Both the position numbers and the translations under genes were made by a program. The notes under the pieces are model-generated. The model was given only the letters and a program-made list of their open reading frames with translations, was not told the DNA's origin and did not search any database. Positions 2 to 15,799 of a stretch of 64,000 bases of DNA are shown piece by piece. The DNA is from an uncultured Planctomycetota bacterium (GTDB lineage: Bacteria > Planctomycetota > Planctomycetia > Isosphaerales > Isosphaeraceae), in the NCBI GenBank assembly GCA_963737655.1, contig CAVTTN010000002.1, positions 6,176,001 to 6,240,000 of the forward strand. Direction: 5' to 3'. Each line of letters starts with the position of its first letter. Within the stretch, counting starts at the first letter, position 1.

Positions 2-2992
2 GACGCCGAAGTCCCCCTGCCCGACCGGCTCCGGCTCCACGAAGTCCTCGCCGCCCTCTGGAAAGACGACGGCCCGTTCGCCCGCCAGTGCCTGCTCGAC
101 ATCATCGCCCGAATCCCCGCGCGATACGGCCCGTGGAAGGCGCTCAAGAGGATCTTCAAGGAGGCCCAGGCGAAGGGGGACGACGAGATGTTCGCCGCCC
201 TGGCCGCCCGGTTCGACTCGGCCTATGCCGAGCACCAGACCGAGGTCGGCAAGCTCACCCTCGCCTACCTCCGCCGGAGGGCCTGGCGGCACCTCCGCCG
301 GACCGCCGAACGCCTCCCGGCCGCCTATGCGGACCTCGCCGCCGACGTCCTGGCCCGATACGACGACGGGACCCAGTGGGCCAAGACGTGGGTCGCCAAC
401 CACATCCTGCTTCATGGCGGCAAGGGCTACGGGCGCGGGGAATTCGGGTACACCGGGGCGATGTCCACCGGCAACTTCACCAAGTTCCGCGCCTATCCCG
501 AGCTCTGGAAGCGGACGCCCCGCCCCCTGTTCGGCCTCCTGGAGCGGTCGCGGAACGAGAGGGCCCGGCGGTTCGCCAGCATGGCGCTGAAGGAGGACTT
601 CCGCGCCTCGCTCCGCGAGGTCGAGCCCGGATGGGTCGCCCGGCTCGTGGCCGTCCGCAGCCAGTCGGTCGATCAGTTCGTGGTCTGGGTCCTGTCGAAT
701 GTCCCGAGGTTCGAGCAGGCCGCGTTCCGCGCGCTGGGGCTCCATGAGGCGGTCCTCCGCCTGTTCGATTCGCCGTCGGACGAGGCCCGGACCTATGCGG
801 CCGGCTACGCGCGGACCCACTCGCGAGACTTGCCCGTCTCCCGCCTGATCGAGCTCGCCGACAACGACAACGACGACGTCCGCCGGCTCGCGGCCGACCT
901 CCTCGGCGACCTCGACCCCCGGAAAGATGTGGGCCTGGACGCCTGGGGCCGGCTCCTGGAGACCGAGAACGGCTCGAAGCTCGCCGCCGACGCCATCCGC
1001 AAGAATTTCGGCCCCAAGGAGCTGACGCCCGAGTGGTTCCGCACCCACCTCTTCACGCCCCACGACGACGCCTTCCGCTTCCTCTCGGGCCTCCTGGCGC
1101 AGGTCCACCCCGCCGAGAAGCTCGGCCCGGACTTCTTCCGGGGGCTGATCGAAGCGGCGCCCGAGGACGTGGATGAGGACGCCTGGGGTCACGTCGCCCC
1201 GTTCGCCCTGAAGCAACTGGAGAGGTTCGACCTCAACGCCCTGCCCTCCGCGTTCCTCCGCCGATTGGTCCTGGATTCGAGGACGCGCGATACCGTGGCC
1301 TCCTGGATCGACTCGGGGCGGCTGAAGCCCTCGTCGATCGGGATCGACTTCCTCAAGGCGATGGCGTCCTCGGCGGATTTCGAGGCCCATCCCGCCGTGG
1401 TCGAGGCCCGCCGGCTCGGGCCGAAGTGGGCGAAATCGCTGGCCTATGACGAGAGGTTCGCCGACCGCGTGCTGGCGATCCTCGGCGACGTCCGCAAGGT
1501 CCTGCCCGCCGACCTCGGGTTCGAGTGGCTCCTGTCCCTGGCCTCGCGGAGCGAGCCCCGGTATCACGATTTCGCCGTGGGAGTGCTGACCAAGGGGTTC
1601 GTCCCGGCCGACTTCGCCCCGGGCGATCCGGCGACGGCCTCGGCCTCGACATCGGGGCCGATCGACCTCGGCGGCGCGTCCTTCCTGTTCACCGGCAAGA
1701 TGGCCACGATGAAGAGGAACGACGCCGAGGCCCAGGTGAAGGCCTCGGCCGGCTCGGTGGCCTCGGGCGTGTCGGCGAAGCTCCATTACCTCGTGATCGG
1801 CGACGAGGGCTCGCCGCTCTTCGGCCACGGCAAGAAGGGGGACAAGCAGACCAAGGCCGAGTCCCTGAACGCCTCCGGGGCGAACATCAAGATCATCTCC
1901 GAGACCGCATTCCTGAAGATGCTCGCCGGGGGCGTGAAGGAGGTCTCGGCCGACGCCTCGCTCGCCGGCTCCGAACGGCTCTGGGACATGGCCACCGCCC
2001 CCGGTCCGGCCGACGCGCCCAGGGCCCGATTCGCGATCGAATACCTCCTGAAACATCACCCCGAGATCGGCCCGGCCCGGACCGAGAAGCCCGTCGATCC
2101 CGGGGCCGAGGTGCCCTCGGAGTTCTTCGATTTTCGGCGGATCGAGCCGCTGTTCCAGGAGACGAGGAAGCCGCTCCGCGACTTCGCCCTGACGCTCGCC
2201 CGCTGGGAGTTCGCCCGCTGGTCGCCCCCGCCGGAGAGCCTCGTCAAGCTGGCCGAGAGCCCTCATCTCGACGTCCGCCGGTTCGTCGCGGAAGCCCTTT
2301 TGGCCGACGACCTGCCCGAGAACCGCCGGTTCCGGATCGACCCGGAGACGCTCAGCCCGTCCGCCGTGTACAGCTTCTGCGAGTCCGCCGATGCCTCGAC
2401 GAGAGACCTCGGGATGCAGCTCATCGGCCGGTCGCCCCGGCTCCGCGAACCCGAGGAGCTGTTCCGATTGACCGATAGCCCGGATCGCCAGATGAGGGCG
2501 TTCGTCGTCCGGGCGTTGTGGTCGCTCTATCGGGATCGCGGGATCACCGAGGGCTGGAAGCCGTCGCTCCCCCCGGCGCCCACGGTCGGCGCCGGGGCGA
2601 GGAAGGCGGCGGCCGTGGCCGCGGAGACCCGCGGGACCGGCCCTCCGGCGAGGCCCGAGAATCCCCCGGCCGAGCCCCGGTCGATGTGGGGCCTCCTCCG
2701 CCGGTCGTTGTTCGAGCTGCCGCCCCCCCGGCCCGAGAAGGGGGAGGCCGTCGAGGCCCAGGGGCGATTGAAGCCCCTCCCGGCGCGGATGGCCAAGCTC
2801 GCGATGATCGAGGTCACGCGCGACCTGGCGATCGAGGACCAGGCGTTTGCCCGGGGGGTGTTGCCCCTGCTCGAAGAGTTCCTGCCGTCCCGCGGGATCA
2901 GCGAGAAATCGGCCTGCCTCGTGGCGATCTCGCGGATTCGCCAGGCGTGGCCGTCCTTGCTGCGGCCGATCGGCGAGGGGGTGGCGTCGTGA
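2..2992 (+). CDS. Large helical-repeat protein with internal BRCT domain; first visible gene of the retron-associated operon (5' end lies upstream of window)
   Basis: Frame is open from position 2 (DAEVPLPDRL...) into ORF 188..2992. BRCT-like segment SFLFTGKMATMKRNDAEAQVKASAGSVASGVSAKLHYLVIG...IISETAFLKML at ~1675-1925. Stop overlaps next start (GTGA 2989-2992). Confidence 0.8.
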   Translation, partial: DAEVPLPDRLRLHEVLAALWKDDGPFARQCLLDIIARIPARYGPWKALKRIFKEAQAKGDDEMFAALAARFDSAYAEHQTEVGKLTLAYLRRRAWRHLRRTAERLPAAYADLAADVLARYDDGTQWAKTWVANHILLHGGKGYGRGEFGYTGAMSTGNFTKFRAYPELWKRTPRPLFGLLERSRNERARRFASMALKEDFRASLREVEPGWVARLVAVRSQSVDQFVVWVLSNVPRFEQAAFRALGLHEAVLRLFDSPSDEARTYAAGYARTHSRDLPVSRLIELADNDNDDVRRLAADLLGDLDPRKDVGLDAWGRLLETENGSKLAADAIRKNFGPKELTPEWFRTHLFTPHDDAFRFLSGLLAQVHPAEKLGPDFFRGLIEAAPEDVDEDAWGHVAPFALKQLERFDLNALPSAFLRRLVLDSRTRDTVASWIDSGRLKPSSIGIDFLKAMASSADFEAHPAVVEARRLGPKWAKSLAYDERFADRVLAILGDVRKVLPADLGFEWLLSLASRSEPRYHDFAVGVLTKGFVPADFAPGDPATASASTSGPIDLGGASFLFTGKMATMKRNDAEAQVKASAGSVASGVSAKLHYLVIGDEGSPLFGHGKKGDKQTKAESLNASGANIKIISETAFLKMLAGGVKEVSADASLAGSERLWDMATAPGPADAPRARFAIEYLLKHHPEIGPARTEKPVDPGAEVPSEFFDFRRIEPLFQETRKPLRDFALTLARWEFARWSPPPESLVKLAESPHLDVRRFVAEALLADDLPENRRFRIDPETLSPSAVYSFCESADASTRDLGMQLIGRSPRLREPEELFRLTDSPDRQMRAFVVRALWSLYRDRGITEGWKPSLPPAPTVGAGARKAAAVAAETRGTGPPARPENPPAEPRSMWGLLRRSLFELPPPRPEKGEAVEAQGRLKPLPARMAKLAMIEVTRDLAIEDQAFARGVLPLLEEFLPSRGISEKSACLVAISRIRQAWPSLLRPIGEGVAS

Positions 2993-5900
2993 GCGAACCT
3001 CTGGACTACGACATCCCGTTCCGGGGCGACCTGAAGGCGGCCGTCGGCGTCGGCTCGGCGGTCCTGTTCGTCACCCATCACCCCGAAGGCCGGCCGGCGG
3101 GCCTCGTCTGGAACGACCTGGGCGAGGAGCGGCCGAAGTCGCAAGTCTTCGTCCTGCCGGGGGGCGGCTCGGCCCTCGTCGCCGACGGCGATTCGGTCTG
3201 GGTCGGCGGAGGGGACGGCCAGCTCTATCGAGGCCCCGTCGGCGACGCCCCGAAGCCGATCGGCCCGAAGCTCCCGGGGCCTCCGAAGGGCCTGGCGATC
3301 CTGTCGGACGACCGCCTCGGCGCGATCGTCGGCTCCGAATTGCTGATCCTTTCGCGCCAGGATGGCAGGACGAAACAATCGCTGCCCTTGCCGGCGGTCC
3401 GTTCGGCGATCGCGGCCGACCCGGCGGGCAAGTGGGTGGCGGTGGGGTCGGTCGACGGCTCGATCTCGGTCTTCGAGGGCGAGGGCGCGGCGGAGTTCGT
3501 CCCGAGCGACTCGCGGAAGGTCCACGAAGCCGCCGTCACGGCCCTGCTGTTCGAGCGCGACGACCTCCGTTTCTTCTCCGCCGGGGCCGATCAAAGGCTG
3601 TTCACCACCCACGCCCGGGGCAAGCTCGAACCCGAGGACAAGGGACGCGGGAACACTCATGCCGACGTCGTCCCGTCGATGATCTGGGGCCCGGCCGACC
3701 GCCTCCTGACCGGCGGCCGGGACGGCGCCGTGAAATCCTGGCCCCGGGTCGGCGGGGTGAAGCCCTCGACCCAGAAGGACGGCGTGGCGAAGGTCGTCGC
3801 GATGGCCCTGGTGACCCGCCTGGGCCGCGAGCACCTGGCCGTCGCCTGCGAGGACAACACGGTCCGGACGTTCTCGCTGGACGCCTCCGGCAAGATCGGC
3901 GACCTCGTGACCCGGGGGCACGACGCCCTGGCGTCGGCGCGTCGGGAGCTCGGCGGCAACGACCATCGAGGCCGGGAAGTCGCCCTGCATCGCCTGGCCG
4001 AGTACGACGACTCCGCCGGGCTCGGGCTGGTGGCCGAGCAGGTCGGCAAGGACCCCGACCACGCCCTCCGCGTGAAGGCGGCCGAGCTCCTCGGGAAGTC
4101 GGACAACCCCCAGGCCGCCACCTTGCTGGAGCCGATGCTCAAGCATCCCGAGGCGGCCGTCCGCTCGGCGGTCCTCGCCGGGCTGAGGAGGCAGAGGGGG
4201 GCGGCCGACCTGCGGACGCTCGACCTCGCGCTCAGGGCCGAGAAGCCCGAGATCGGCAAGGCGGCCGTGGAGGCGCTCGCCGAGATCGCCCCGAAGGACG
4301 ATCGCGCGCTCGCCCGGCTCACGGCCGCCCTGTCGGCCAGGACGCCCGAGACCCGCCAGGCCGCGCTGATCGGCCTCGAATCGGCCTATGCGAAGGATTC
4401 GCCCGAGGCCGACCTGATCGCCCTGGGCACCGAGTTCGCGGACGTCCGCCAGGCCGCCCTGTTGCGGCTCTTCCGCCGGGGGTTCCTCGAAGACCCGGCC
4501 GTGAGGACCGCGTTGAGGCTCCGGGCCGAGGACGCCGATGCGGAGGTCCGCCGGGTCGCCTTCCTGCTCGCGCTCCACGCCCGACCGTCCTTGCTGGCGA
4601 GCCTCCGGGCCCGGGACCCCGAGCTCGAACGCCAGGTCGCCGACCTCGAAGGCACCGCCGAGCCGGCGAAGGCGCCGAAAAAGGCCACGACCAAAGAGGC
4701 AGCCCTCGCGAGCGACGACCTCGAGCCGCTCCTCCAGGCGTCGGCCAGCCGGTCGCTGGATACGAGCCTTCGAGGGGCCCGGGGGCTGGCCGTCCTGGGC
4801 GATCCCCGGGCGTTCGGGCTGCTCCTGCAACTCAGTCGCGAGGACGAGGCGACGGCCCGGGTCGAGGTCTGCCGGGCGATGGCGGCCCTGGACGACCCCC
4901 GGGCCGTCGAGAGGCTGCGATCGCTCCTGGCGGACGCCGACGCGGCGGTCCGCGACGCGGCGTTCTCGGCCCTGGCCCGGCTCCACCAGGCCGACCCGTG
5001 GAAGGCGGCGGAAGCCGGCCTGACGGCCCCGTCCGAGGACGTCCGCCGCCGGGGGCTCGGCGTCCTGATCGCCTCCGCGAGGAAGGCCCCGCCGAAGGGG
5101 CCCGACGACCGCGCGTGGAACCTCCTGGCCGACGCCCTGAATGACGCCTTCGCCTCGATCCACTCCGAGGCGTTCAAGGCCGTCCTGAACCTGGGGATCG
5201 GCGGAGGGGGCCCGGCGTCCCTGCGGTTCGCCATGAAGAGCCTTCGCGCGGAGGTCCGCTCCGAGGCGTTGAAAGAGGCCGAGGCCCTGGTCGGCCAGCC
5301 GGGCGGCTGGGACGTCCTCCTGGAGTTCTTCAACGACCCCGATTCGGCCCTCCGAGGCCGCGCCTTCGAGTTCGCCACGAAGAAGACCAAGGGGCTGGAG
5401 ATCCTCGACGCGGCGCTCGGCTCGCGCTATCCCGAGATGCGCAAGGCGGCCGTCGAGGGGCTGGTCAAGAAGCACACCGCCGCCGCTCAGAAGCTGCTGG
5501 TCCGGGCCCTGGAGGACGAGGCTCGCGCGGTCCGGCTCGCGGCCCTGGAATCGCTCGTCGCCGAGGACGCCGTCCCCGTCTTGCTGGAAGCCCTGGACGG
5601 CCCTCATGCCGACGTCCGCCTCCGGGCGGCGAAGGCCCTCGCCCGCCACGGCCGGGCCGAGGCGCTCGCCCCCCTGCTCTCCCTGGTCACGACCCCCGAA
5701 CCCCTCGAAAACGAGCGGAAGAAGGACTGGCTCGGCCTCGCCGAATCGGCCCTCGACGGCCTGGGCGAGCTCGGCGACCCGGCGGCCGTCCCGGCGCTGA
5801 TCCCCCTGATCGACAGCCCGCATCCGGCCCTGAGATGGCGGGCCACTCAGGCCCTGGCCTGGTCGTGCCCGCCCGGGGCGACGGCGCCGCTGCGCGACGC

Positions 5901-8900
5901 GCTCCGACATCAAGACGTCCAGGTCCGTTCCGCCTCGGCGGTGGGCCTGGCGTACTCGGGCGACCCGTCGGCCGTCCCGTTGATGCTCTCCAAGGAGGCC
6001 GCGAAGAGCCTGAGCGCCGGCGAGATCCTCGGGGCGGCGCTGGCCCTCAGCGAATCGGCCAGCGGCGAGGGGCACCTGCTCGCGACGCTCGACGACTCCG
6101 GCGTGAAGGCCCGGGACCGGGCCCTGCGGATGCTCGTGATCCTCGAATGGAAGGCCCCGAGGGCGATGGCCGGTCGGCTCCTGGCCGCCCTCGCCGCCCG
6201 GGACGCGAGGACCCGCCTGGTCGCCGCCGAGGCGCTCGAGGCCCTCGCCGAACCGGCCGGGCTCGCCCCGTTCGTCGGCCGCCTGATCAACGAAGCCGAC
6301 CGCAAGACGCCGTGGAAGATCGCCGCCGCGACGCTCGACGACCTCGGCGAGCTCCTCGCCCACGCCGACCCCCGCCTCCGCGCCGGACCGCCCGGCTCCT
6401 CCGCCACCTCGACGCCGACGAGTCGGCCGAGTTCGACCAGGTCTGGGCCGTCCACTCGGCCCGGTTCGCGGCGGAAATCCAGGCGCTCCGAGCCGCCTCG
6501 AAGACCCGCAAGCCGCCGAAGGACCGGCCGTCGGCCGAGGGCCTCCGCGACCTGGCGTTCGGCGCCTATGTGGGCCTGGTCCGGGAGCACGGAGGACGGC
6601 CGAACGACCCGTCGAAGACCGTGGCCGTCCGGCTCTCGGCCCTGAATCACCTCGTGGCGATGGCCCGCTCCGACCCGAAGTTCGCCTCCGGGGCCCGGCC
6701 GGTCCTGGTCCAGGCGATGGGCGACCCGAACGCGGCGGTCAGGCTGCCCGCCTTCGAGGCGCTGCCCGGGCTCGGCCTGCCCTCGGGCGATCTCGCCGCC
6801 GAGGCCCTGGGCGTGGGCCACGTCGATCTCGGCATCAAGGGGTTGGAGGCTCCTGTCCGGCTCGGGGACGTCCGCCGAGGGCCGACGGGTGCTCGACTCC
6901 GCCATGCTCTCGCGACGGGACGACCTCGCCACCGAGGCCGCCAAGCTCCTGATCGCCCGGGAAGGCCCGGCGCCCGTGGCCGCTCGCGCCCTGGACGCCG
7001 CCCACGAGCCGTTGCGGCGGCTCGCCGTCTCGTGGCTGATCGACGAGTTCGACAAGGCCCCCGAGGCGAAGGATTCGCTGCGAAAGGCCCTGAAATCGCG
7101 ATACCCCGAGGTCCGCGAGGCCGCGGCGTTCGGCCTGGCCGGCAAGAAAGACCTGGCCGCGTTCGACGCGCTGGTCGGCCTGCTGAAGGACGCCCCGAAG
7201 TCCGACGCCGCCCGCCCCTACGTCCGCGCCCTGACCTCGCTCGGGGACCCGCGAACGGCCTCCGCGTTCGTCGATCGCGTCGAGGATGACCCGGCCGGGA
7301 CGGCGCCCGTCGAGGACCTCCTCAAGGCCGCCGGCTCGTCCCGCAACCCGGAGGTCTTCGACCGCCTGTTCGCCCTCCTCGACAAGCCCGGCCGGCGATC
7401 CCCCGCGCTCGTGCCGGCCCTCCTGGCGATCTCCGGCCACGACCAGCCGATCGAGGATTTCGAGGACGAGCGCGACGACCGCAAGTGGGAAGCCTCGCAG
7501 TTCCCCCGGCAGGATGAGCTGCTCGCCCGCCTCCTCGGCCGGTTGACCGCCCCCGGAGAGACCGGCGCCTCGGACCTGATCCGCCCCGCTCGATGGTCGC
7601 GATCCGGGGCCGTCGATCCGGTCCTCGCGACCCTGATCGCGCACCCCGACGAATCGACCCGCCGGGCCGCGATCGAGGCCATCGGCTGGCGAGCCCGCAA
7701 GCGAAAGGGCGATTTCGCCCCGCTGGTCAAGGCGCTCGGCTCGAAGGACCCGGTCGCGCAACTGCTCGCGGCCGAGGGGCTGGCGAGGGCCGGGAGGCCC
7801 GAGGGGCTGTCGGTCCTGCTCGCGAGCGTCGAGTTCGTGACCGACCTGAACCTCCGCCGCCGCGCCGTCTCGGCCCTGGGCGAGCTGGGCGACGAGAGGT
7901 CCGCCGACGTGCTCGTGAAGCTCGCCGGGGAGGACGGCCACGCGCTCCAGGACGAGGCCGCCGAAGCGATCGGCCACCTCGGCCAGTCCAAACATGCCGA
8001 GGCGATCACTCGGCTCCTCGAACGTCACGCCCGGGGCAACGGCAGCGTCGTCCAGCACGCGATCCAGGGGCTTCGCTGGCTGAATACGGCCTCCGGCTGG
8101 GGGCTGATCCGCGACCGGGCCGTGGACCCGTCGTTCTTCGATCGCGAGATCGCCGTCGAGCAGCTCGCCCACGACCGCGACCCCGCCACGAAGGACCTCC
8201 TCCTTCGTTTGCTGGCCGAGGACGACGATTTCAGCGTCCTCGAAGCGGCCGTGAACTCGGCCAGGAAGGTGTTCGGGCCGGATTCGCTGGAGCCGGACGA
8301 GGCGATCGTCCAGAACGAGAACGCCACCGGCTCGGACGACTTCGAGGCCGCCGAGGAGCGCGTCTGCGAGCGGTCCAGCCCGGCGCGGATCTTCGCGATC
8401 CTGGAGAAATCGCCGCCCGAGGAGGTCCGCACGTCCCTGTGCCGGGCGTTGCTGAACCGGCCGTCGCCGCCGCTGGCCGAGGCGGAGGCCGGGCTCGGCA
8501 GCCCGTCGCCGATCGTCGCGGCCCTGGCGGCGAGCCTCCTGGGCCGGGCCGGCTCGCCGAAGGCCGGGGCCTCGGTGAAGAAGGCGCTCGAAGCCCGATG
8601 GTCGGCCTGGAAGGCCCGCCGCGAGACCTCGCGCGACGAGGCCGACGGCGGCCCCCGAGCCGAAGAGGCCCTCGCCCTCGCCCGGCTGATCTGGGCATCC
8701 GGGAGGCTCGGAGCCGCCCTCGATCTCCTCGCCGAGATCGCCCGGACCCCGGCCGACGACCGATTCGCGGCGACGGTCCGAAAGGCGGCCGTCCAGGCCC
8801 TCGCCGCCTCTCCGAACCCCTCGAAAAATGCGATCGAGGCCCTCGAATCGGCCGCCGAAGCGGGGAATCCCGACCTCCGCGCCGAGGCGGCGCAGGCCCT

Positions 8901-9309
8901 CGCCGAGAACGCCCCGAAGGCCGCCGCCAAACTCGCCGAAACGCTCCTCTCCGACCGCTCCGCGTTCGACCGCCTGGCCCGGGCCGACGGCCTCGGCGCC
9001 GTCCTTCGCAGCAACGCGGGCGTCGCTCATTATCAAGGCGTGGTCTTGCCCTATCTTGTCGAAGAACAAGACGTGAAGACGCTGGCCGCCGTCGCCGAGG
9101 ACCGCTCCCGGCCCGAATTCGCCCGGCTCGGCGCGATCGAGGCGCTCGCCGCGACGGCCCTCGGGCCGGCCGAGGACGTCCTGAAGCGGATCGGCGCCAA
9201 CTCCGGCGACGACGAGGAGATCCGCAAGGCCGCCTGGCGGGCCGTCCGACGATCGCGGAGGCTCCGACTCAAGGCCAATCCCCCGAAGAAGGCCGAGGTG
9301 GCGAGATGA
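2989..9309 (+). CDS. Giant WD40 beta-propeller plus HEAT/ARM-repeat protein (~2100 aa reconstructed across two compensating indels)
   Basis: GTG at 2989. WD40-like repeats (VHEAAVTALLF..FFSAGADQRL, LLTGGRDGAVKSW), then many HEAT/PBS-lyase-like repeats (ALEDEARAVRLAALESL). Coding frame switches at ~6384 (into ORF 5835..7289) and ~6849 (into ORF 6889..9309). Confidence 0.8.
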
Positions 9310-11174
9310 GCGACGCCCCCGATCCCGAGGTCGCCGAACCGGCCGGGCCCGAGCGGACCGAGGTCCACCTGACCTACGCCGGGGCCAGCCGCCTCGTCTC
9401 GGACGAGGGATCGGCCCGCCTCGCCCTGGCCGGCGACCTCCGCCGCGACCCCGTCCGGTTCGATGGCGTGATCAACGATCCCTTGCGGTTCCGCGAGGCG
9501 ATGTCGGCCCTCTACGCCGTCGTCGCCAGCGACATGCGCTATCAGCCCAAGGACCGCACCGCCTACCTCGCCTACACGAGGATGCGCCGCGAATCCTCGG
9601 GCCTGGACGCCCTCCACGCCCAGCGAGAATACTTCTCCTGGCTCCTCCAGAACGACCCGCTCGCCTTCGTGATCCTCGACCCGGTGGTGACGGTCCACCC
9701 CGACCAGGTCTTCTTCGAGGTCTTCAGCAAGGACGAGGGCGCCTATGCGAAGCTCGGCATCGATCATGACGCCTTCACGAGCGAATCCGAGCCGTCGTTC
9801 GGCACGACGAACGTCGATTTCAGCCAGGGCCTGTTCCGGGGCATCCAGCAGATGCGGTCGTACCGCGAGACCCGCCTGAGCATCGGCCGGGAGGGCGTGG
9901 CTCTGGCCACGGCGACGGCCGGCGAAGTCCTGGAGAAGACGATCCAGGTGCCCGATTCCTGGCTCCGGGGCTTCCTCCAGGTCCAGTCCGCCGCCGCCCT
10001 CCCGCGCGACACGTTCTCGCTCAAGCCGATCGACCTGTATAACGCGCTGCGATATCTGCGACTGCACGCGGACAAGAAAGGCCAGCGCCGGGGGCTGAGG
10101 GTCGAGCTGATGCCCGGGCAGCCGCCCCGGCTCGTCCTGGAGCCGTGGAACGAGGTGATCCCGGCGACGGCCGGGCCGTACAGGGGCAAGTCCTCGCGGG
10201 TGGCGCGGGTCTGGGGCCGCCGCCGATTGATGCTCATGCAACGCTTCCTGCCGTTCGTGGAAGATGTCGATGTCCACCTCCTGGGCAGCGGCCTGCCGAG
10301 CTTCTGGGTCCTCCGGGGGCGGGGGATGTCCTTGACCCTCGGATTGACCGGCTTCACGGCCGCGAACTGGTCCCAGGCGCTGAACTTCGACCTCCTCCTG
10401 CCGCGAAAGGCCGAGCCGGGCGGGAAGGACCTGGAGGCGGTCCTCGCCCACCTCGCCCCCCGGTGGTCGGCCGGGGCCGGCGAGCTGGCGAAGGCCACGA
10501 AATTGCCCTGGCCGAAGCTGGTCGAGGCGCTGCAACTGGGCTGCCAGCAAGGCCGGATCATGTACGACATCGCGGCCGACGTCTATCGGTTGCGCCCTCT
10601 GACCGACGCCCCGCTCGACCTCTCCCGGCTGGAGTTCCGCGACCCCCGCGAGAAGGTCGCGCATGACCTGCTCGTCCGCCGGGGCGCGGTGACGATCACC
10701 GGGGAGAACCGCATCCCGGGCTCGGGGCTGGAAATCACCGGGAAGGTCGTGGTGGACGAGGACCGCCGCGAATATCGGCCGCAGATGCTCCTGGCCGACG
10801 AGGGGCAGGTCGCGAAGGCCGAATGCACGTGCTCGACGTTCCGCAAGCAGGGCCTGAAGGGCGGCCCGTGCGTCCACCTCGTCGCCCTCCGGCTCGCCCT
10901 GGCCGCCCGGGAAGCCCGGAGGGCGTCGGGCTCCGAGCCGGCCGACGCGATCACCGCCGAGACCCGGCTGTTCAGCCGCCGCGACCCGTCCGGCGAGGAC
11001 GTGGTGCAGATCACCCTCGACCGCCGCCGGGTGAAGTCGCGATGGGGCCGCGCCGACGGCCCTTCGCGGCTCCAGACGCTCACGTTCGACTCGACCGAGG
11101 ACGTGCGCGGGGCGTACCTCGCCCGGATCGCCGACCTCGACGCCCGCGGATTCCTCGACGCCTCGGCCGGATGA
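9306..11174 (+). CDS. SWIM zinc-finger protein with C-terminal WGR-like domain
   Basis: ATG overlaps upstream stop (ATGA 9306-9309). CxC-x12-CxH motif AECTCSTFRKQGLKGGPCVHLVAL. C-terminal RVKSRWGRADG...LDARGFLD. Confidence 0.85.
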   Translation: MSDAPDPEVAEPAGPERTEVHLTYAGASRLVSDEGSARLALAGDLRRDPVRFDGVINDPLRFREAMSALYAVVASDMRYQPKDRTAYLAYTRMRRESSGLDALHAQREYFSWLLQNDPLAFVILDPVVTVHPDQVFFEVFSKDEGAYAKLGIDHDAFTSESEPSFGTTNVDFSQGLFRGIQQMRSYRETRLSIGREGVALATATAGEVLEKTIQVPDSWLRGFLQVQSAAALPRDTFSLKPIDLYNALRYLRLHADKKGQRRGLRVELMPGQPPRLVLEPWNEVIPATAGPYRGKSSRVARVWGRRRLMLMQRFLPFVEDVDVHLLGSGLPSFWVLRGRGMSLTLGLTGFTAANWSQALNFDLLLPRKAEPGGKDLEAVLAHLAPRWSAGAGELAKATKLPWPKLVEALQLGCQQGRIMYDIAADVYRLRPLTDAPLDLSRLEFRDPREKVAHDLLVRRGAVTITGENRIPGSGLEITGKVVVDEDRREYRPQMLLADEGQVAKAECTCSTFRKQGLKGGPCVHLVALRLALAAREARRASGSEPADAITAETRLFSRRDPSGEDVVQITLDRRRVKSRWGRADGPSRLQTLTFDSTEDVRGAYLARIADLDARGFLDASAG

Positions 11175-11181
11175 GACCCTC

Positions 11182-12506
11182 ATGGCCACTCAACGCACCA
11201 CCGACCCGCTGACCCTCTGGCGAGCGATCGTCCAGGCCGGCGGCATCCCGTCTTATATCGATGCGCAACTCGCCGAGCGCGGCTTCCTCGTCGCCCGGCG
11301 AGAGACCGACGGGATGTCCGAGCGCGAGCTGGCCGAGTACAAGAAGTCGCTGAAGGCGGAGGCCGCCGAGAAGGTCCGCCTCCGGCGCGAGGCCTGGGCC
11401 GCGTATCGGGCCGAGCACATCGTCTACCTCGGCGACGGCATCTACTGGAAGGACGACCCCGGGCCCGACAAGTGGGACCACCCGAAGGCCGAGGAGCGGG
11501 CCGCCGAGAACGAGCTGCCGCCGCTCGACTCCCCCCGCCAGCTCGCCGAGGCGCTCGGGCTGACCGTCGCGCAGCTCCGCTGGCTGGCCTTCCACCGCGA
11601 CGCCGCCCGGTCGATCCACTACCGGCGGTTCACCATCCCCAAGCGAGACGGCTCCGAGCGCGCCATCTGGGCCCCGATGCCCCGGCTGAAGGCCGCCCAG
11701 CGCTGGATCTTGTGGAACATCGCCGAGAAGCTGCCGGTCCACGGGGCGGCCCACGGCTTCCTCCCGGGCCGCTCGATCCTCTCGAACGCCGCGATCCACC
11801 GGGCGCCGGACCTCGTGGTCAAGATCGATCTCAAGAACTTCTTCCCGACGGTCTCATGGAGACGCGTCAAGGGCCTGTTCCGGAGCGCCGGCTACCGCGA
11901 GCACGTCGCCACCTTGCTCGCCCTGCTCTGCACCGAGGCCCCTCGCGAGATCGTCGAGGACGAGGGGAAGACGTATTTCGTGGCCCTCGGCCCGCGATGC
12001 CTGCCCCAGGGCGCGCCCACCAGCCCCGCGCTCACGAACACGCTCTGCCTCCGGCTCGACCAAAGGCTCTCGGGCCTCGCGAGGAATCGGGGCTGGCGCT
12101 ACACCCGCTACGCCGACGACCTCACCTTCAGCCGCCCGGGCGATGCGAAGGGCCCGCCCGGGATCGGCCGTTTGCTCGGCTCGGTCCGGAGGATCGTCGA
12201 GGGGGAAGGGTTCGCCGTCCACCCGGGCAAGACCACGGTGGGCCGCACGGGGGGCCGGCAACGGATCACCGGCCTGGTCGTCAACGGCGACCGCTCGCCC
12301 CGGCCCACCCGCGAATTCAAGAGGAACCTGAGGGCGGCGATCCACAACCTCGCCGCCGGGAAGGACGCCGAGGGCGGCGAATCCCCGGCGGTGCTCGCCG
12401 GCCGCGCCGCGTTCGTCGCCATGACCGAGCCCGAGCTCGGCCGCGCCCTGCTCGATCGATTGAACCGGGCGCTCGAAGCCCGGGCGCCGGGGCTTCGAAC
12501 CCCTAG
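11182..12506 (+). CDS. Retron-type reverse transcriptase, Mx162-like (~441 aa; true stop inferred at TAG 12504-12506 after a 1-nt indel)
   Basis: Motifs IPKRDG, AAHGF, region X NAAIH, KIDLKNFFP, LPQGAPTSP, catalytic YTRYADDLTFS, region Y QRITGLVVN. Long N-terminal extension (AIVQAGG..KAEAAEK..HIVYLGDGIYW) recalled as resembling myxobacterial retron RTs. One extra G in the G run at 12489-12492 gives ...RAPGASNP*. Confidence 0.92.
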
Positions 12507-12513
12507 CTCGACC

Positions 12514-15144
12514 TCATCGGCCCGGGGCGACGGCCTTCTGGAGGCCGGTGACGACCTCGGCCCCCGGGGGCTCGCAGATCCTCGGGACCGCCAGGCGGAC
12601 GCCGTGGTCCCGGAACTTGACCAGGGGGGACTCGGGGAAGCTCACCGCCACGTCCGGGTTGCCGGGTCGGAAGCCGTGGTCCAGGGCCCTTTCCTGGACC
12701 GCCTGGGTCATCAGGAACTCGAGGAACCGCCGCGCCTCCTTCCTCTGCGCCTCCGAGCTCCAGGGGACGTCCAGGACGTAGTAGGGGTGGTCGTTCCACA
12801 CGTTGGGATCGGCGTAGATGACCTGGAGGGAGCCGGCCTCGCCCCACTTCGAGAGGGCCTTGTCGATCGAGTCGATCGCGAGGTTCTCGTACACCAGGAC
12901 GCAATCGAATTGCGAGGGGCCCTTGTTGACCATCTCCTTCATGAGCGTCCCGGTGCTCGCCGTGAGCGAGCCCGAGGGCCGGGTCAGCCGGGATTCGAAC
13001 GTCGCGAGCCAGGAGACGAAGTCCTCGCCGCGGACGTCCTCGACGGTCAGGTGACGAAGCTTGGCCCGGAACTCGTACGCCATGAGGACCAGGGCGAGGA
13101 ACCCGCTGTTGGACGTCTCCGGGTCGGTGTGGGCGAACTTGAACAGGCCCCACTCGGGCTTCTCGGCGATCGATCTCCAGCCGTCGGGCTCGGCCATCGC
13201 CCGGCCGATCGTCTTGAAGGAGACCTCGCCGTACTTCTTGACGAAGGCGTCGTGGCGGTCTTTCCACATGACGAAGACCATCGGCGTGACGGCCAGCTCG
13301 CGCGCCTCCAGGATCGCGGGCCGGTCGTGCTTCGCCTTCCAGCGCTCCTCGAAGAGCTTCCGGTAGGCGCTGCTGGCGGGGCTCCAGACGTGGATCGGCC
13401 GGTCCCCCGGGCCGTCCAAAACGAGGTTGGCGCCTTCGAGCGATCCGAGGCCCCTCAGGGTGATGTGGGACCGCTTGCCCTCGGGGGTGGCCTCGTAGTC
13501 CTTCAGGGCCGCCTTGAGCCACGCCTCCTTCTCGGTCCCGTAGGCGATCACGACCTCGGGCAAGTCGCCCGGGACGGTCGGGATCCCCGAGGCCGAGCCC
13601 GCCGACCCGCCCGGCTTGGCCGAGGACCGGCGGACCTCCTCCGGACCGACTCCCCAGAACCCCCGGATCGACGGCCACATCGCCGCGATCAGGAGGCCGG
13701 CGACGACCAACGCCGAGGCCGCCGCGATCAGGCCCCGGGCGCCCTTCTTCCTCGGAGGCCCCGCCGGCTTCGGCGCCGAGGCCGAGGGAGCCGCCGGGGC
13801 GCCGGTCAGGCCCGTCCGATCGGCGAACGAGAACTCGGTGAACGAGACCTGCGAGGGATGCCTCGGCGGGGGGGCGCCGGTTGCTTCATCGGCGAGGTCC
13901 GGCCTCGGCCTCTCGGCGAACGAGAACTCGGTGAACGAGACGTTCGAGGACGGGTCTCTCGGCGGGGGCGTGGGCGCCTCGATCGTGCCGGGGTCGGGCC
14001 TCTCGGCGAACGAGAACTCGGTGAACGAGACGTTCGAGGGATGGGCCGGGAACGGCCCGGTGGCGTCGGTCGGCCCGACCACCGCCCGGAGCTGGACGGT
14101 CTGATCCTGGGGGAGGACCCGGGAGATCGTCCCGCAGTGAATGCAACGGACCTCCTCGCCCACGAACCGGGTGTCGGCGCCGATCAGGGCCCGGCACGAC
14201 GGGCAGGGGACGAGGCCGACGGGCACTCGTTCCGGGGCGGCCTCGCGAACCGAGGGCGCCTCGGGCAGTTCGGCCAGGGCCTCCTGGGCCATCATCGCGC
14301 AGGAGGCGAAGCGGTCGTTGGGCTCCTTGGACATCCCCCGGCGGATCGCCCGGGAGAGCCTCGCCGGGATGCCCGGCAGGAGCTCGTCCAGGGGCGGCGG
14401 GTCGATGTTCGTCTGGTTCACGATCGTGGCCGAAGGCGACGGCCCGACGAGGTAGTTCTTGCCGGTGAGGACCTCGTGGACGGTCAGGGCGAGCGAGTAC
14501 TGGTCGGCCCGGCCGTCGGTCCGGGCCCCGATGACGATCTCGGGGGCCACGTAGCTGGGCGTCCCCAGGAGGAAGCCCGGGGCCGTCAGCGAGTTCTCCT
14601 CGGCGGTCCGGGCCTCGTCCCGGGAGAGGGCCTTGATGATCCCGAAGTCGCCGATGAACGCGTTGCCGTGGGCGTCGAAGAGGATGTTCGCCGGCTTCAC
14701 GTCGCGGTGGATGTGCCCCTGGGAGTGGATGAAGTCCAGGGCCCGGGCCACGTCCAGCAGCCAGTCGCGGAGGGAGGCCGGGTCCATCGGCCGGGCCTCG
14801 CCCTCGGGCCCGCCCTGCATCCGCTCCTTCAGGCTGCCGCCGGTCAGGTACTGCATGACCACGAACGGGCGGTCGCTCATCACCCCCACGTCGATGATCC
14901 GGACGATGTGGGGGTGGCCCAGCTTCACCAGAGACCGCGTCTCCCGGCTGAACCGCTCGATCAGGTTCGGCATCGGCATCCCCTGCTCGGGGCCGATCGG
15001 GAACTTGATCACGACCTCGGTCTGGAGGTTGTTGTCGAACGCCCGGAAGACCTGCCCCATGCTCCCCGAGCCGATCCGGCCGAGGACCCGGTAGCGGCCC
15101 CCGCCCAGGGCCCGGCCGATCCAATCTTCAGTCGCGCCGACCAC
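12514..15144 (-). CDS. Membrane Ser/Thr protein kinase with Zn-ribbon, triple peptide repeat and extracytoplasmic substrate-binding-like domain
   Basis: GSGSMG, VVIKF, HRDVKPANIL, DFG, GTPSYVAPE; CPSC..CIHC; TM segment LIAAASALVVAGLLIAAMW; C-terminal SBP-like region (IAYGTEKEAWL, VWSPASS, HTDPETSNSG). Confidence 0.88.
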   Translation of the reverse strand: MVGATEDWIGRALGGGRYRVLGRIGSGSMGQVFRAFDNNLQTEVVIKFPIGPEQGMPMPNLIERFSRETRSLVKLGHPHIVRIIDVGVMSDRPFVVMQYLTGGSLKERMQGGPEGEARPMDPASLRDWLLDVARALDFIHSQGHIHRDVKPANILFDAHGNAFIGDFGIIKALSRDEARTAEENSLTAPGFLLGTPSYVAPEIVIGARTDGRADQYSLALTVHEVLTGKNYLVGPSPSATIVNQTNIDPPPLDELLPGIPARLSRAIRRGMSKEPNDRFASCAMMAQEALAELPEAPSVREAAPERVPVGLVPCPSCRALIGADTRFVGEEVRCIHCGTISRVLPQDQTVQLRAVVGPTDATGPFPAHPSNVSFTEFSFAERPDPGTIEAPTPPPRDPSSNVSFTEFSFAERPRPDLADEATGAPPPRHPSQVSFTEFSFADRTGLTGAPAAPSASAPKPAGPPRKKGARGLIAAASALVVAGLLIAAMWPSIRGFWGVGPEEVRRSSAKPGGSAGSASGIPTVPGDLPEVVIAYGTEKEAWLKAALKDYEATPEGKRSHITLRGLGSLEGANLVLDGPGDRPIHVWSPASSAYRKLFEERWKAKHDRPAILEARELAVTPMVFVMWKDRHDAFVKKYGEVSFKTIGRAMAEPDGWRSIAEKPEWGLFKFAHTDPETSNSGFLALVLMAYEFRAKLRHLTVEDVRGEDFVSWLATFESRLTRPSGSLTASTGTLMKEMVNKGPSQFDCVLVYENLAIDSIDKALSKWGEAGSLQVIYADPNVWNDHPYYVLDVPWSSEAQRKEARRFLEFLMTQAVQERALDHGFRPGNPDVAVSFPESPLVKFRDHGVRLAVPRICEPPGAEVVTGLQKAVAPGR
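13820..14031. repeat. Three exact 29-bp intragenic direct repeats (13820, 13913, 14003) encoding VSFTEFSFA
   Basis: tcggcgaacgagaactcggtgaacgagac x3 with periods of 93 and 90 nt, in frame in the kinase linker. Confidence 0.9.
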
Positions 15145-15196
15145 GGAAGACCTCCTTCGAGACGGGAGAGGATGGGCCGGGGCCGAGGCCGGGGTC

Positions 15197-15799
15197 TCAG
15201 GACCCGGCGACGGCCCGGGCTCCCGGGCCGATCGGCAGGGCGATTCGGAACGTGGTGCCGACCCCGGGTTCGCTCGCCACGTCGATCGTCCCGCCGTGCT
15301 CGACGATCGTCGAATGAGCCAGGCTGAGCCCCAGGCCGGTGCCCCGACCCACGGCCTTGGTGGTGAAGAACGGGTCGAAGATCCGGGGGAGGCTCTCCGG
15401 CGCGATCCCGCAGCCGTCGTCGCCGATCTCCACGATCGCCCGGTCCCCTTCGGACCGGGTGGACACGACGATCCGGCCTCGGCCTCGGCCCGAGTCCTCG
15501 ATCGCCTGTTCCGCGTTCATCAGCAAATTGAGGACGGCGTCCCGCAGCGCCCCGTCCCTCGACTCGTCCGGCCCCAGGCCCAGGAGTTCGGCGAGGGGAG
15601 CCGTGGCCGAGATCAGCCGATACGTCCCCGGTTCGAGCCGGGCGATCATCTCCCCGGACCGGCCCGCCCGCGAGTTCGGCAAGGGCATCAGCATCGACCG
15701 GCTGACCGTCTGATCCCCGCCCGCCGCCGACACCCCCGCCCCGCCCGCCGGAGCGGGCAGGGACTGGCCGCAAACAGAGCACTCGCGGTTGGGAGGCAT
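15197..15799 (-). CDS. Stand-alone HATPase_c (histidine-kinase ATPase domain) protein lacking an evident H-box
   Basis: N box NLLMNAEQAI, G1 DDGCGI, F box IFDPFFTTK, G2 GTGLGL; N-terminal CSVC. Confidence 0.75.
   Translation of the reverse strand: MPPNRECSVCGQSLPAPAGGAGVSAAGGDQTVSRSMLMPLPNSRAGRSGEMIARLEPGTYRLISATAPLAELLGLGPDESRDGALRDAVLNLLMNAEQAIEDSGRGRGRIVVSTRSEGDRAIVEIGDDGCGIAPESLPRIFDPFFTTKAVGRGTGLGLSLAHSTIVEHGGTIDVASEPGVGTTFRIALPIGPGARAVAGS

Follow-up and report, generated by a model that had tools for sequence, protein, structure and literature searches.

A Type XIII Retron of an Isosphaeraceae Bacterium with Two Predicted Template RNAs about 12 kb Upstream of Its Reverse Transcriptase

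Where is the template of a retron whose reverse transcriptase (RT) gene leaves no room for one beside it? The non-coding RNA (msr-msd) and the RT gene are not contiguous at the locus described here, contiguity being the usual layout of a retron and not a mechanistic requirement. The original prediction, made for a 64-kb stretch of the genome (the window, G000:C2:6176001-6240000; upstream positions are negative and equal the C2 position minus 6176000), offered several answers: an RNA in the operon leader, over 11 kb off and outside the window, an RNA embedded in a coding sequence, an RNA acting in trans, no template RNA at all, or an RT that primes differently.

Results

A Type XIII Operon with Tight Junctions

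The genes concerned are, in window positions:

Gene A: 1 to 2992, + strand, starting 241 nt before the window (L001:15759); 1077-aa HEAT/ARM-repeat protein
Gene B: 2989 to 9309, + strand; protein of about 2100 aa with WD40 and HEAT repeats (Pfam)
SWIM protein gene: 9306 to 11174, + strand; 622 aa (PADLOC SWIM_XIII, E 1e-197)
SWIM-RT gap: 11175 to 11181, + strand; 7 nt, without an RNA gene
Type XIII retron RT gene: 11182 to 12506, 3' end inferred, + strand (PADLOC RT_XIII, E 1.5e-159)
Ser/Thr kinase gene: 12514 to 15144, - strand, convergent with the RT gene; kinase fused to an extracellular solute-binding-type domain

All four operon genes are assigned to retron type XIII in PADLOC, the models including SWIM_XIII and two of HEAT-ARM_XIII. 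Gene A matches HEAT-ARM_XIII PDLC02921 (E 1.8e-291), and its relatives are named 'BRCT domain-containing', with PF00533 present in relatives; PDLC02919 matches both halves of gene B. The RT has the NAXXH/YADD/VTG-like motifs of retrons (NAAIH at 202, YADD at 310, ITG at 362), and its best PADLOC model is RT_XIII with 530 bits, the runner-up reaching 320 bits, its assignment to clade 10 or type XIII being by profile match alone. By these matches the locus is an Mx162-group retron (type XIII), and its named relatives assign the host to the Isosphaeraceae. No toxic domain was recognized in the operon proteins by Pfam or PADLOC.

The close packing of the operon is as originally described. Between the SWIM stop (TGA, 11172-11174) and the RT ATG at 11182 lie 7 nt; gene A overlaps gene B by GTGA (2989-2992), and gene B overlaps the SWIM gene by ATGA (9306-9309). 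The tight SWIM-RT gap is not a chance feature, because 12 of 24 relatives have a spacing of 5-39 nt, the others having 64-305 nt (seven) or about 1 kb (five), and the covariance model used below finds no RNA match in the gaps of these 24 relatives. A MraW-family methylase gene lies between SWIM and RT at L024:15531-16421, the one gap of about 1 kb that was checked; similar gaps are present in L027-L029 and L031.

The 3' junction is a different matter. About 7 nt had been proposed between the RT stop and the kinase stop (12514), and this fails in the assembly as it stands: the TAG at 12504-12506 is out of the RT frame, which remains open to 15327 (1381 aa). Because the RT ends in all 24 relatives examined (at 429-453 aa in 23 and 497 aa in one), and because frame breaks in gene B near 6385 and 6850 are absent in three relatives, where gene B is a single ORF of 2114-2146 aa, the open frame is a likely, if unproven, assembly indel; the 7-nt junction would hold only in that case. 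An inverted repeat seen by eye across the RT 3' end (about 12472-12500) may mark either the place where the frame breaks or a shared terminator. The adjoining kinase gene is not conserved as an operon neighbor.

Two Predicted msr-msd Units in the Operon Leader

The leader before gene A is 840 nt long and holds two tandem units, 89% identical overall:

msr-msd unit 1: G000:C2:6174979-6175260 (L001:14979-15260; window -1021 to -740), + strand; upstream of and outside the window
msr-msd unit 2: G000:C2:6175387-6175668 (L001:15387-15668; window -613 to -332), + strand; upstream of and outside the window

In both units a promoter-like TTGCAT-17-TAGAAG is followed by an a2 arm whose last bases are TCTA-G-C, by two short hairpins and a long one (a perfect 29-bp stem closed by a 28-nt loop), by an a1 arm that begins with TAGA and by a GC-rich hairpin. 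For unit 1, the promoter-like site starts at L001:14946, the predicted branch G within TAGC is L001:15020 (window -980, 12.2 kb before the RT start), the stem pairs L001:15109-15137 with 15166-15194, the a1 arm starts at 15232, and the GC-rich hairpin spans 15262-15296 without a U run. The corresponding elements of unit 2 are the promoter-like site from L001:15354, the predicted branch G at L001:15428 (window -572, 11.8 kb before the RT start), the stem of L001:15517-15545 with 15574-15602 and the GC-rich hairpin from about 15670; the unit ends about 100 nt before gene A and runs in the same direction. The two stems differ at 11 of 25 core positions, every change being compensated, and the scaffolds at about 3 of 161. 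GATC is present in the stem of unit 2 and absent from that of unit 1.

The fold z scores are -9.0 for unit 1 and -10.0 for unit 2. From the a1 edge to the hairpin base, the predicted cDNA would measure about 150-165 nt, and a 162-nt version, its end point chosen by us, has a z score of -12.1 when folded as DNA. The covariance model matches unit 1, which is itself among the training sequences, and gives no match at E ≤ 1 over the 64-kb window, including in or beside the RT and SWIM genes; the genome holds no msr-msd copies beyond the two leader units. Rfam returned merely generic hairpin matches, none reaching the gathering score, and a standard scan of the leader for promoters and terminators found 0 of each.

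Thus the leader location had been correctly anticipated, the two branch G residues lying 11.8 and 12.2 kb upstream of the RT. An RNA embedded in a coding sequence, an absent template and a different mode of priming gain no support, as the canonical TAGC branch motif and the a1/a2 arms are present.

Two other features of this genome may be recorded. An extra copy serving the second retron RT was considered and rejected, as that RT (C2:719256) is of the outgroup type with no model match nearby; its best PADLOC models are RT_other/RT_outgroup (G000:C2:719256-720260, L050), and a structured non-coding stretch, judged by eye, lies directly upstream of it. A short tandem palindromic repeat at L001 about 13550-13600, 2.4 kb before the window, is likely a host intergenic repeat and is preceded by a gene that we take to be amidohydrolase-like.

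Features of a Retron Template in the Leader RNA

The units have complementary a1/a2 ends with a branching G, and short msr hairpins followed by a long covarying msd hairpin, as retron templates do. With six weak, duplicate or other-lineage units removed beforehand, 66 of 73 units have TAGC where it is expected, and of the 62 units scored, 48 have a cognate a2/a1 duplex that falls among the top 10% of all pairings; the branch G is 209-219 nt from a1. The promoter-like motif, a pattern composed after viewing the data, is found upstream of 46 of 66 units compared with 0.33 in shuffles.

In an alignment of 23 units 98% of the cells pair, compared with 33-48% in slid controls; because these units are related by descent, the shuffle counts for the alignment are not to be read as probabilities. 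Within the 29-bp stem 25 of the 29 pairs change on both sides with 99.4% paired, and several msr pairs also change on both sides. Across 104 units the non-standard cells of the stem are 12 A-C and two G-U, and those of msr hairpin 2 are 65 G-U and one A-C. Because an A-C cell of the RNA becomes a G-T wobble in the cDNA, the stem is maintained for its DNA copy, whereas the msr is maintained for the RNA itself; the types of mismatch show the stem to function as the strand made by reverse transcription. In 4 of 11 loci of another type XIII lineage the same model weakly matches an RNA adjacent to the RT (E values from 3e-8 to 3e-6), and this RNA, lying directly before its RT, links the detached RNA to the canonical layout. 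That the leader units are the template of the type XIII RT is well supported by these sequence features.

The msd loop may form a pseudoknot with a segment by a1 (alignment columns 167-174 and 244-251; 91% paired, with one of eight pairs covarying). The CAGGT motif recurs in the a2 arm as well, so that the RNA 5' tail could pair with the start of the msDNA.

Distribution and Position among Relatives

An RNA match is present in 29 of 121 genomes of the family Isosphaeraceae; of these, 16 have one leader copy, nine have two, one has a copy and a cut copy, one has three, and two have copies cut by contig ends. Two fragmented Isosphaeraceae genomes with the RT gave no RNA match. Among the 151 genomes of a second family (f106) the RNA occurs in 29, the RT in 28 and never more than once, both in 25 and neither in 119, and the seven discordant genomes are assemblies of 390-1670 contigs. 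The RNA co-occurs with this RT across the two families.

All 20 operons fetched from families f106 and f2 have a leader copy, one of them cut by a contig end and one deleted for the stem. The position is not invariant: in G128 and G296 a single copy directly follows the RT, and in G246 the RNA is one gene further upstream, the ORF between it and gene A (L051, about 1700-2700) being, by eye, presumably ParB-like. Of 80 metagenome operons, some of them duplicating genomes already counted, 43 have a match upstream of gene A and five have too little flank, while 32 with at least 700 nt upstream have no leader RNA. In a quick gene A tree, whose deep forks are weakly supported, most of the operons without an RNA in the leader fall outside the leader-type group, and these metagenome loci end before the RT. 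At L083:1811-1878 and L084:8160-8227 there is a leader remnant, a 28-bp hairpin with a 12-nt loop, apparently without the msr part.

Scattered Copies of the RNA Gene

Twelve genomes of genus g342 have 8-35 matches each, and genomes of eight further genera have at least six among the matches listed. G594, a genome in one contig, has 35 separate RNA places and one RT of this group; it and similar genomes also have another type XIII RT, which belongs to the second lineage. We examined 30 of the 35 places in G594 and all 14 in G536. Among the matches listed, most copies in both genomes carry the branch motif and have 27-29 of the 29 stem positions paired, and the mean stem identity is 0.28 in G594, with one identical pair, and 0.31 in G536.

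The scattered units have signals of their own: a promoter-like site in 25 of 42 (0.9 in shuffled sequence), a stable downstream hairpin in 35 of 42 and, in 27 of 42, arms that pair best with their own partner. Some copies lie beside the same genes in two species, with unrelated stems (L161 and L193; L164 and L190). In G630 the leader copy (L148:2805-2980) has its 29-bp stem and loop deleted, and ten strong scattered copies and an open RT remain. Because of these individual signals, the conserved sites and the loss of the leader stem in G630, we favor free-standing RNA genes used in trans. Action in trans, one of the options first put forward, is also the most likely for the present locus.

Some scattered copies are decayed. 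Many G594 copies have near-identical flanks and adjoin an expanded gene family of about 250 aa that recurs beside eight of 30 G594 loci (L167, L172, L174, L177, L178, L182, L183 and L187); its C-terminal 85 residues are conserved, and the one member scanned is without a Pfam match. A fixed neighbor of the scattered copies was discarded as an idea, none being found and the expanded family standing at just these eight loci.

A Stem Fixed in Length and Free in Sequence

The stem has a constant length of 29 bp, and its middle is near maximal entropy. Tandem copies differ at 8-18 of 25 core stem positions compared with 3-9 of about 161 scaffold positions. Faster-than-neutral change of the stem was nevertheless rejected: between tandem copies the arms diverge at 92 of 175 positions (0.53) and the promoter spacers at 67 of 119 (0.56). 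As the arms diverge no faster than the spacers, there is no sign of diversifying selection, and by this comparison the stem sequence is free rather than demonstrably driven.

The arms are rich in internal inverted repeats (arms of at least 5). Among scattered stems, after removal of four misfit copies and one duplicate, 32 of 39 have such a repeat, compared with 14.1 ± 2.6 when shuffled; among leader representatives 24 of 46 have one, compared with 13.4 ± 2.8. Palindromes of 6 bp are enriched in the scattered arms (41 versus 24.7 shuffled) and not clearly so in the leader arms (35 versus 28.4 ± 4.8 in dinucleotide shuffles), and neither the centers nor the spacers of the palindromes have a fixed position. 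Template switching in a hairpin can by itself produce internal palindromes as well as changes that are compensated; the excess seen in the stems is expected under such mutation and equally under selection for binding sites.

We also considered whether the stems are acquired spacers. This was rejected: the two arms of the present locus have no match over 16 nt at E < 0.1 in their own genome, the best exact match of 16 nt being at chance level, and the stems of close relatives differ by substitutions. The msr core pattern gave 0 matches in viral contigs.

A Clamp-like Fold Predicted for the SWIM Protein

In an AlphaFold2 model of the SWIM protein (pLDDT 77), residues about 50-355 superpose on PCNA with a Z score of 15.8 and an r.m.s.d. 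of 2.8 over 214 of 245 residues at 8% identity, a likeness also returned by Foldseek. The protein is thus predicted to carry a PCNA-like two-domain clamp subunit fold, along with a winged helix (369-432), a SWIM finger (498-528) and a C-terminal domain (552-622) that we take to be WGR-like. PCNA and the beta clamps grip duplex DNA without reading its sequence, and because clamps hold duplex in this way, a stem fixed in length and free in sequence fits a clamp. For the SWIM protein, the accessible text of Mestre et al. (PMC7736814) proposes a transposase-like DEDE motif and does not mention PCNA or a clamp.

Discussion

Taken as a whole, we consider it reasonably probable that this is a type XIII retron with two trans-acting templates some 12 kb upstream, whose branched DNAs of about 160 nt would present a 29-bp duplex as bait in a clamp-like complex. 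The parts of this proposal differ in strength. The RT would very probably prime at the G of TAGC, its copying starting at the a1 edge and ending where the msd hairpin begins, and each RNA copy would probably be its own transcription unit, with a single RT serving all. It is an even question whether the clamp-fold SWIM protein and the HEAT proteins would hold the duplex by its length and not its sequence. Possible, rather than probable, is that different palindrome-rich stems would let a broader range of invader proteins (methylases, nucleases or DNA-binding proteins) set off a defense response of the complex. The trigger would then be an invader protein that modifies, cuts or binds the msDNA duplex in the clamp/HEAT complex; we infer both the bait and the defense role of the msDNA. 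According to the accessible text of PMC12548924, a phage adenine methyltransferase triggers two other retrons with GATC in their ncRNAs, and in one of the two the GATC is within the reverse-transcribed part.

Several points weigh on the other side, among them the empty promoter and terminator scan of the leader, arms that diverge no faster than promoter spacers, leader arms without a clear excess of 6-bp palindromes, the metagenome operons without a leader RNA, the lack of a recognized toxic domain and the broken frames of the RT end and gene B in this assembly. Type XIII tracks the host phylogeny (PMC7736814, accessible text), which is unusual for defense and counts against a defense reading, and the second type XIII RT in G594-like genomes could read some of the copies, which counts against the reading with one RT. 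More tentatively still, and without calling it probable, we suggest that the family is a natural multiplexed retron, in which one RT and a clamp complex would carry a genome-wide set of up to about 35 different msDNAs, whose self-mutating, palindrome-rich 29-bp duplexes would sample the sites recognized by invader methylases, nucleases and repressors, a programmable bait repertoire without spacer acquisition.

The RNA could instead be the RT template and nothing beyond that, the extra copies and different stems reflecting msDNA dose or neutral drift and the palindromes arising as a by-product of template switching. We hold this to be rather unlikely. It accords with an arm divergence equal to that of the promoter spacers, with the single copy in 16 of 29 RNA-positive Isosphaeraceae genomes, with the lack of a fixed position for palindrome centers and spacers, and with the decay of some copies; yet dozens of copies keep the promoter-like site, the arms, the branch motif and exactly 29 bp, nearly all stems differ (mean identity of 0.28 in G594, among the matches listed), and in two species some copies have kept their neighboring genes although the stems have been replaced. 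The near-identical flanks of many G594 copies beside an expanded gene family, and the precedent of Ne160 (PMC6868368, accessible text), would also suit selfish repeats or retrotransposed msDNA, as proposed for Nannocystis, but the scattered copies include the msr, both arms and the upstream promoter-like site, none of which is in msDNA, and their arms differ yet stay paired, with several copies at conserved positions in two species. Such an origin of the scattered copies is very improbable.

That the system is a domesticated machine outside defense, its msDNAs being decoy operators or repair or replication signals read by a clamp/BRCT/winged-helix complex, seems to us improbable. The predicted PCNA-like fold and winged helix, the BRCT names in relatives, the operator-like interrupted palindromes in the arms and the vertical inheritance of type XIII (PMC7736814, accessible text) are in keeping with it; its scattered occurrence, in 29 of 121 genomes of one family and 28-29 of 151 of the other, is not, and the two arms of the present locus have no match over 16 nt (E < 0.1) elsewhere in the genome, nor are the stems of orthologous copies conserved, as true operators should be. 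Finally, the RNA may be simply the 5' end of a single 13.5-kb RNA-effectors-RT transcript acting in cis. Unit 2 has the orientation of gene A and stops some 100 nt short of it, a U run is missing from its hairpin, some read-through from it into the operon is possible, and genes between msr-msd and RT are known (PMC6868368, accessible text). This leaves unexplained unit 1 with its own promoter-like site and hairpin, as well as the downstream position in G128/G296 and the scattered copies, and we regard it as quite improbable. The original prediction held that a canonical msr-msd directly 5' of the first gene would make the layout an ordinary one; such an RNA is literally there, but the layout is still not ordinary, because two self-contained copies are present here and the copies of relatives lie downstream of the RT or are scattered by dozens.

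For the partner proteins of the Mx162 group, the accessible text of Mestre et al. (PMC7736814) gives only predicted domains. With a single RT, an unchanging scaffold, dozens of templates that differ only in a 29-bp stem and a partner protein predicted to fold like a DNA clamp, this family amounts to a natural experiment, in which the purpose of the msDNA, and whether its sequence determines specificity, become directly testable. Because one such retron would naturally serve many unlinked templates, each with a free insert of 29 bp, it would also be of interest for multiplex editing tools.

The operon has RT_XIII, the SWIM protein and two HEAT/ARM genes in common with type XIII (RT clade 10: Mx162, Mx65, Ne144 and Sa163), in which two HEAT/ARM genes precede that for the SWIM protein 'in some cases' (PMC7736814, accessible text). 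TAGC is the commonest branch context of retrons, and the predicted msDNA is close in length to that of Mx162, which is 162 nt (PMC6868368, accessible text). Retrons in the accessible text of Mestre et al. (PMC7736814) are contiguous ncRNA-RT cassettes, whereas here the RNA is about 12 kb away and duplicated and, in relatives, downstream or scattered. Retrons with an RNA-accessory gene-RT order likewise have genes between RNA and RT but, as described in the accessible text of PMC6868368, one RNA per cassette, in contrast to the 11.4 kb of coding sequence and the multiple self-contained RNA genes found here. Retron-Nex1 (Ne160) of Nannocystis exedens, with duplicated msr-msd lacking a nearby RT, was read as retrotransposed copies; that account, compared here by its description only, mentions no cognate RT, copy-specific stems or accessory operon in its accessible text (PMC6868368).

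Surveys can miss such RNAs because they lie 11.5-12.2 kb from the RT or elsewhere in the genome. In accessible text, the search of the SPIRE survey extended 10 kb from each RT in both directions (PMC13712802), and a census lists 17 type XIII rows, none of them from a planctomycete (PMC10849725). We found no description of a natural multi-template retron in the open literature, although subscription papers and the Mestre supplement may list some of the RNAs. By analogy only, CRISPR arrays share the constant scaffold, the fixed-length variable insert and the many copies, but the present stems are related by substitutions, form no array and accompany retron genes as defined by PADLOC. Another parallel is the engineered retron array, in which, to judge from the title of the work, several template RNAs are used in a synthetic editor (bioRxiv 10.1101/2023.07.17.549397) and of which the present RNAs would be a natural counterpart. 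The architecture of the operon is thus that of the already catalogued type XIII, and the detached and multiplied templates are the trait of a new variant.
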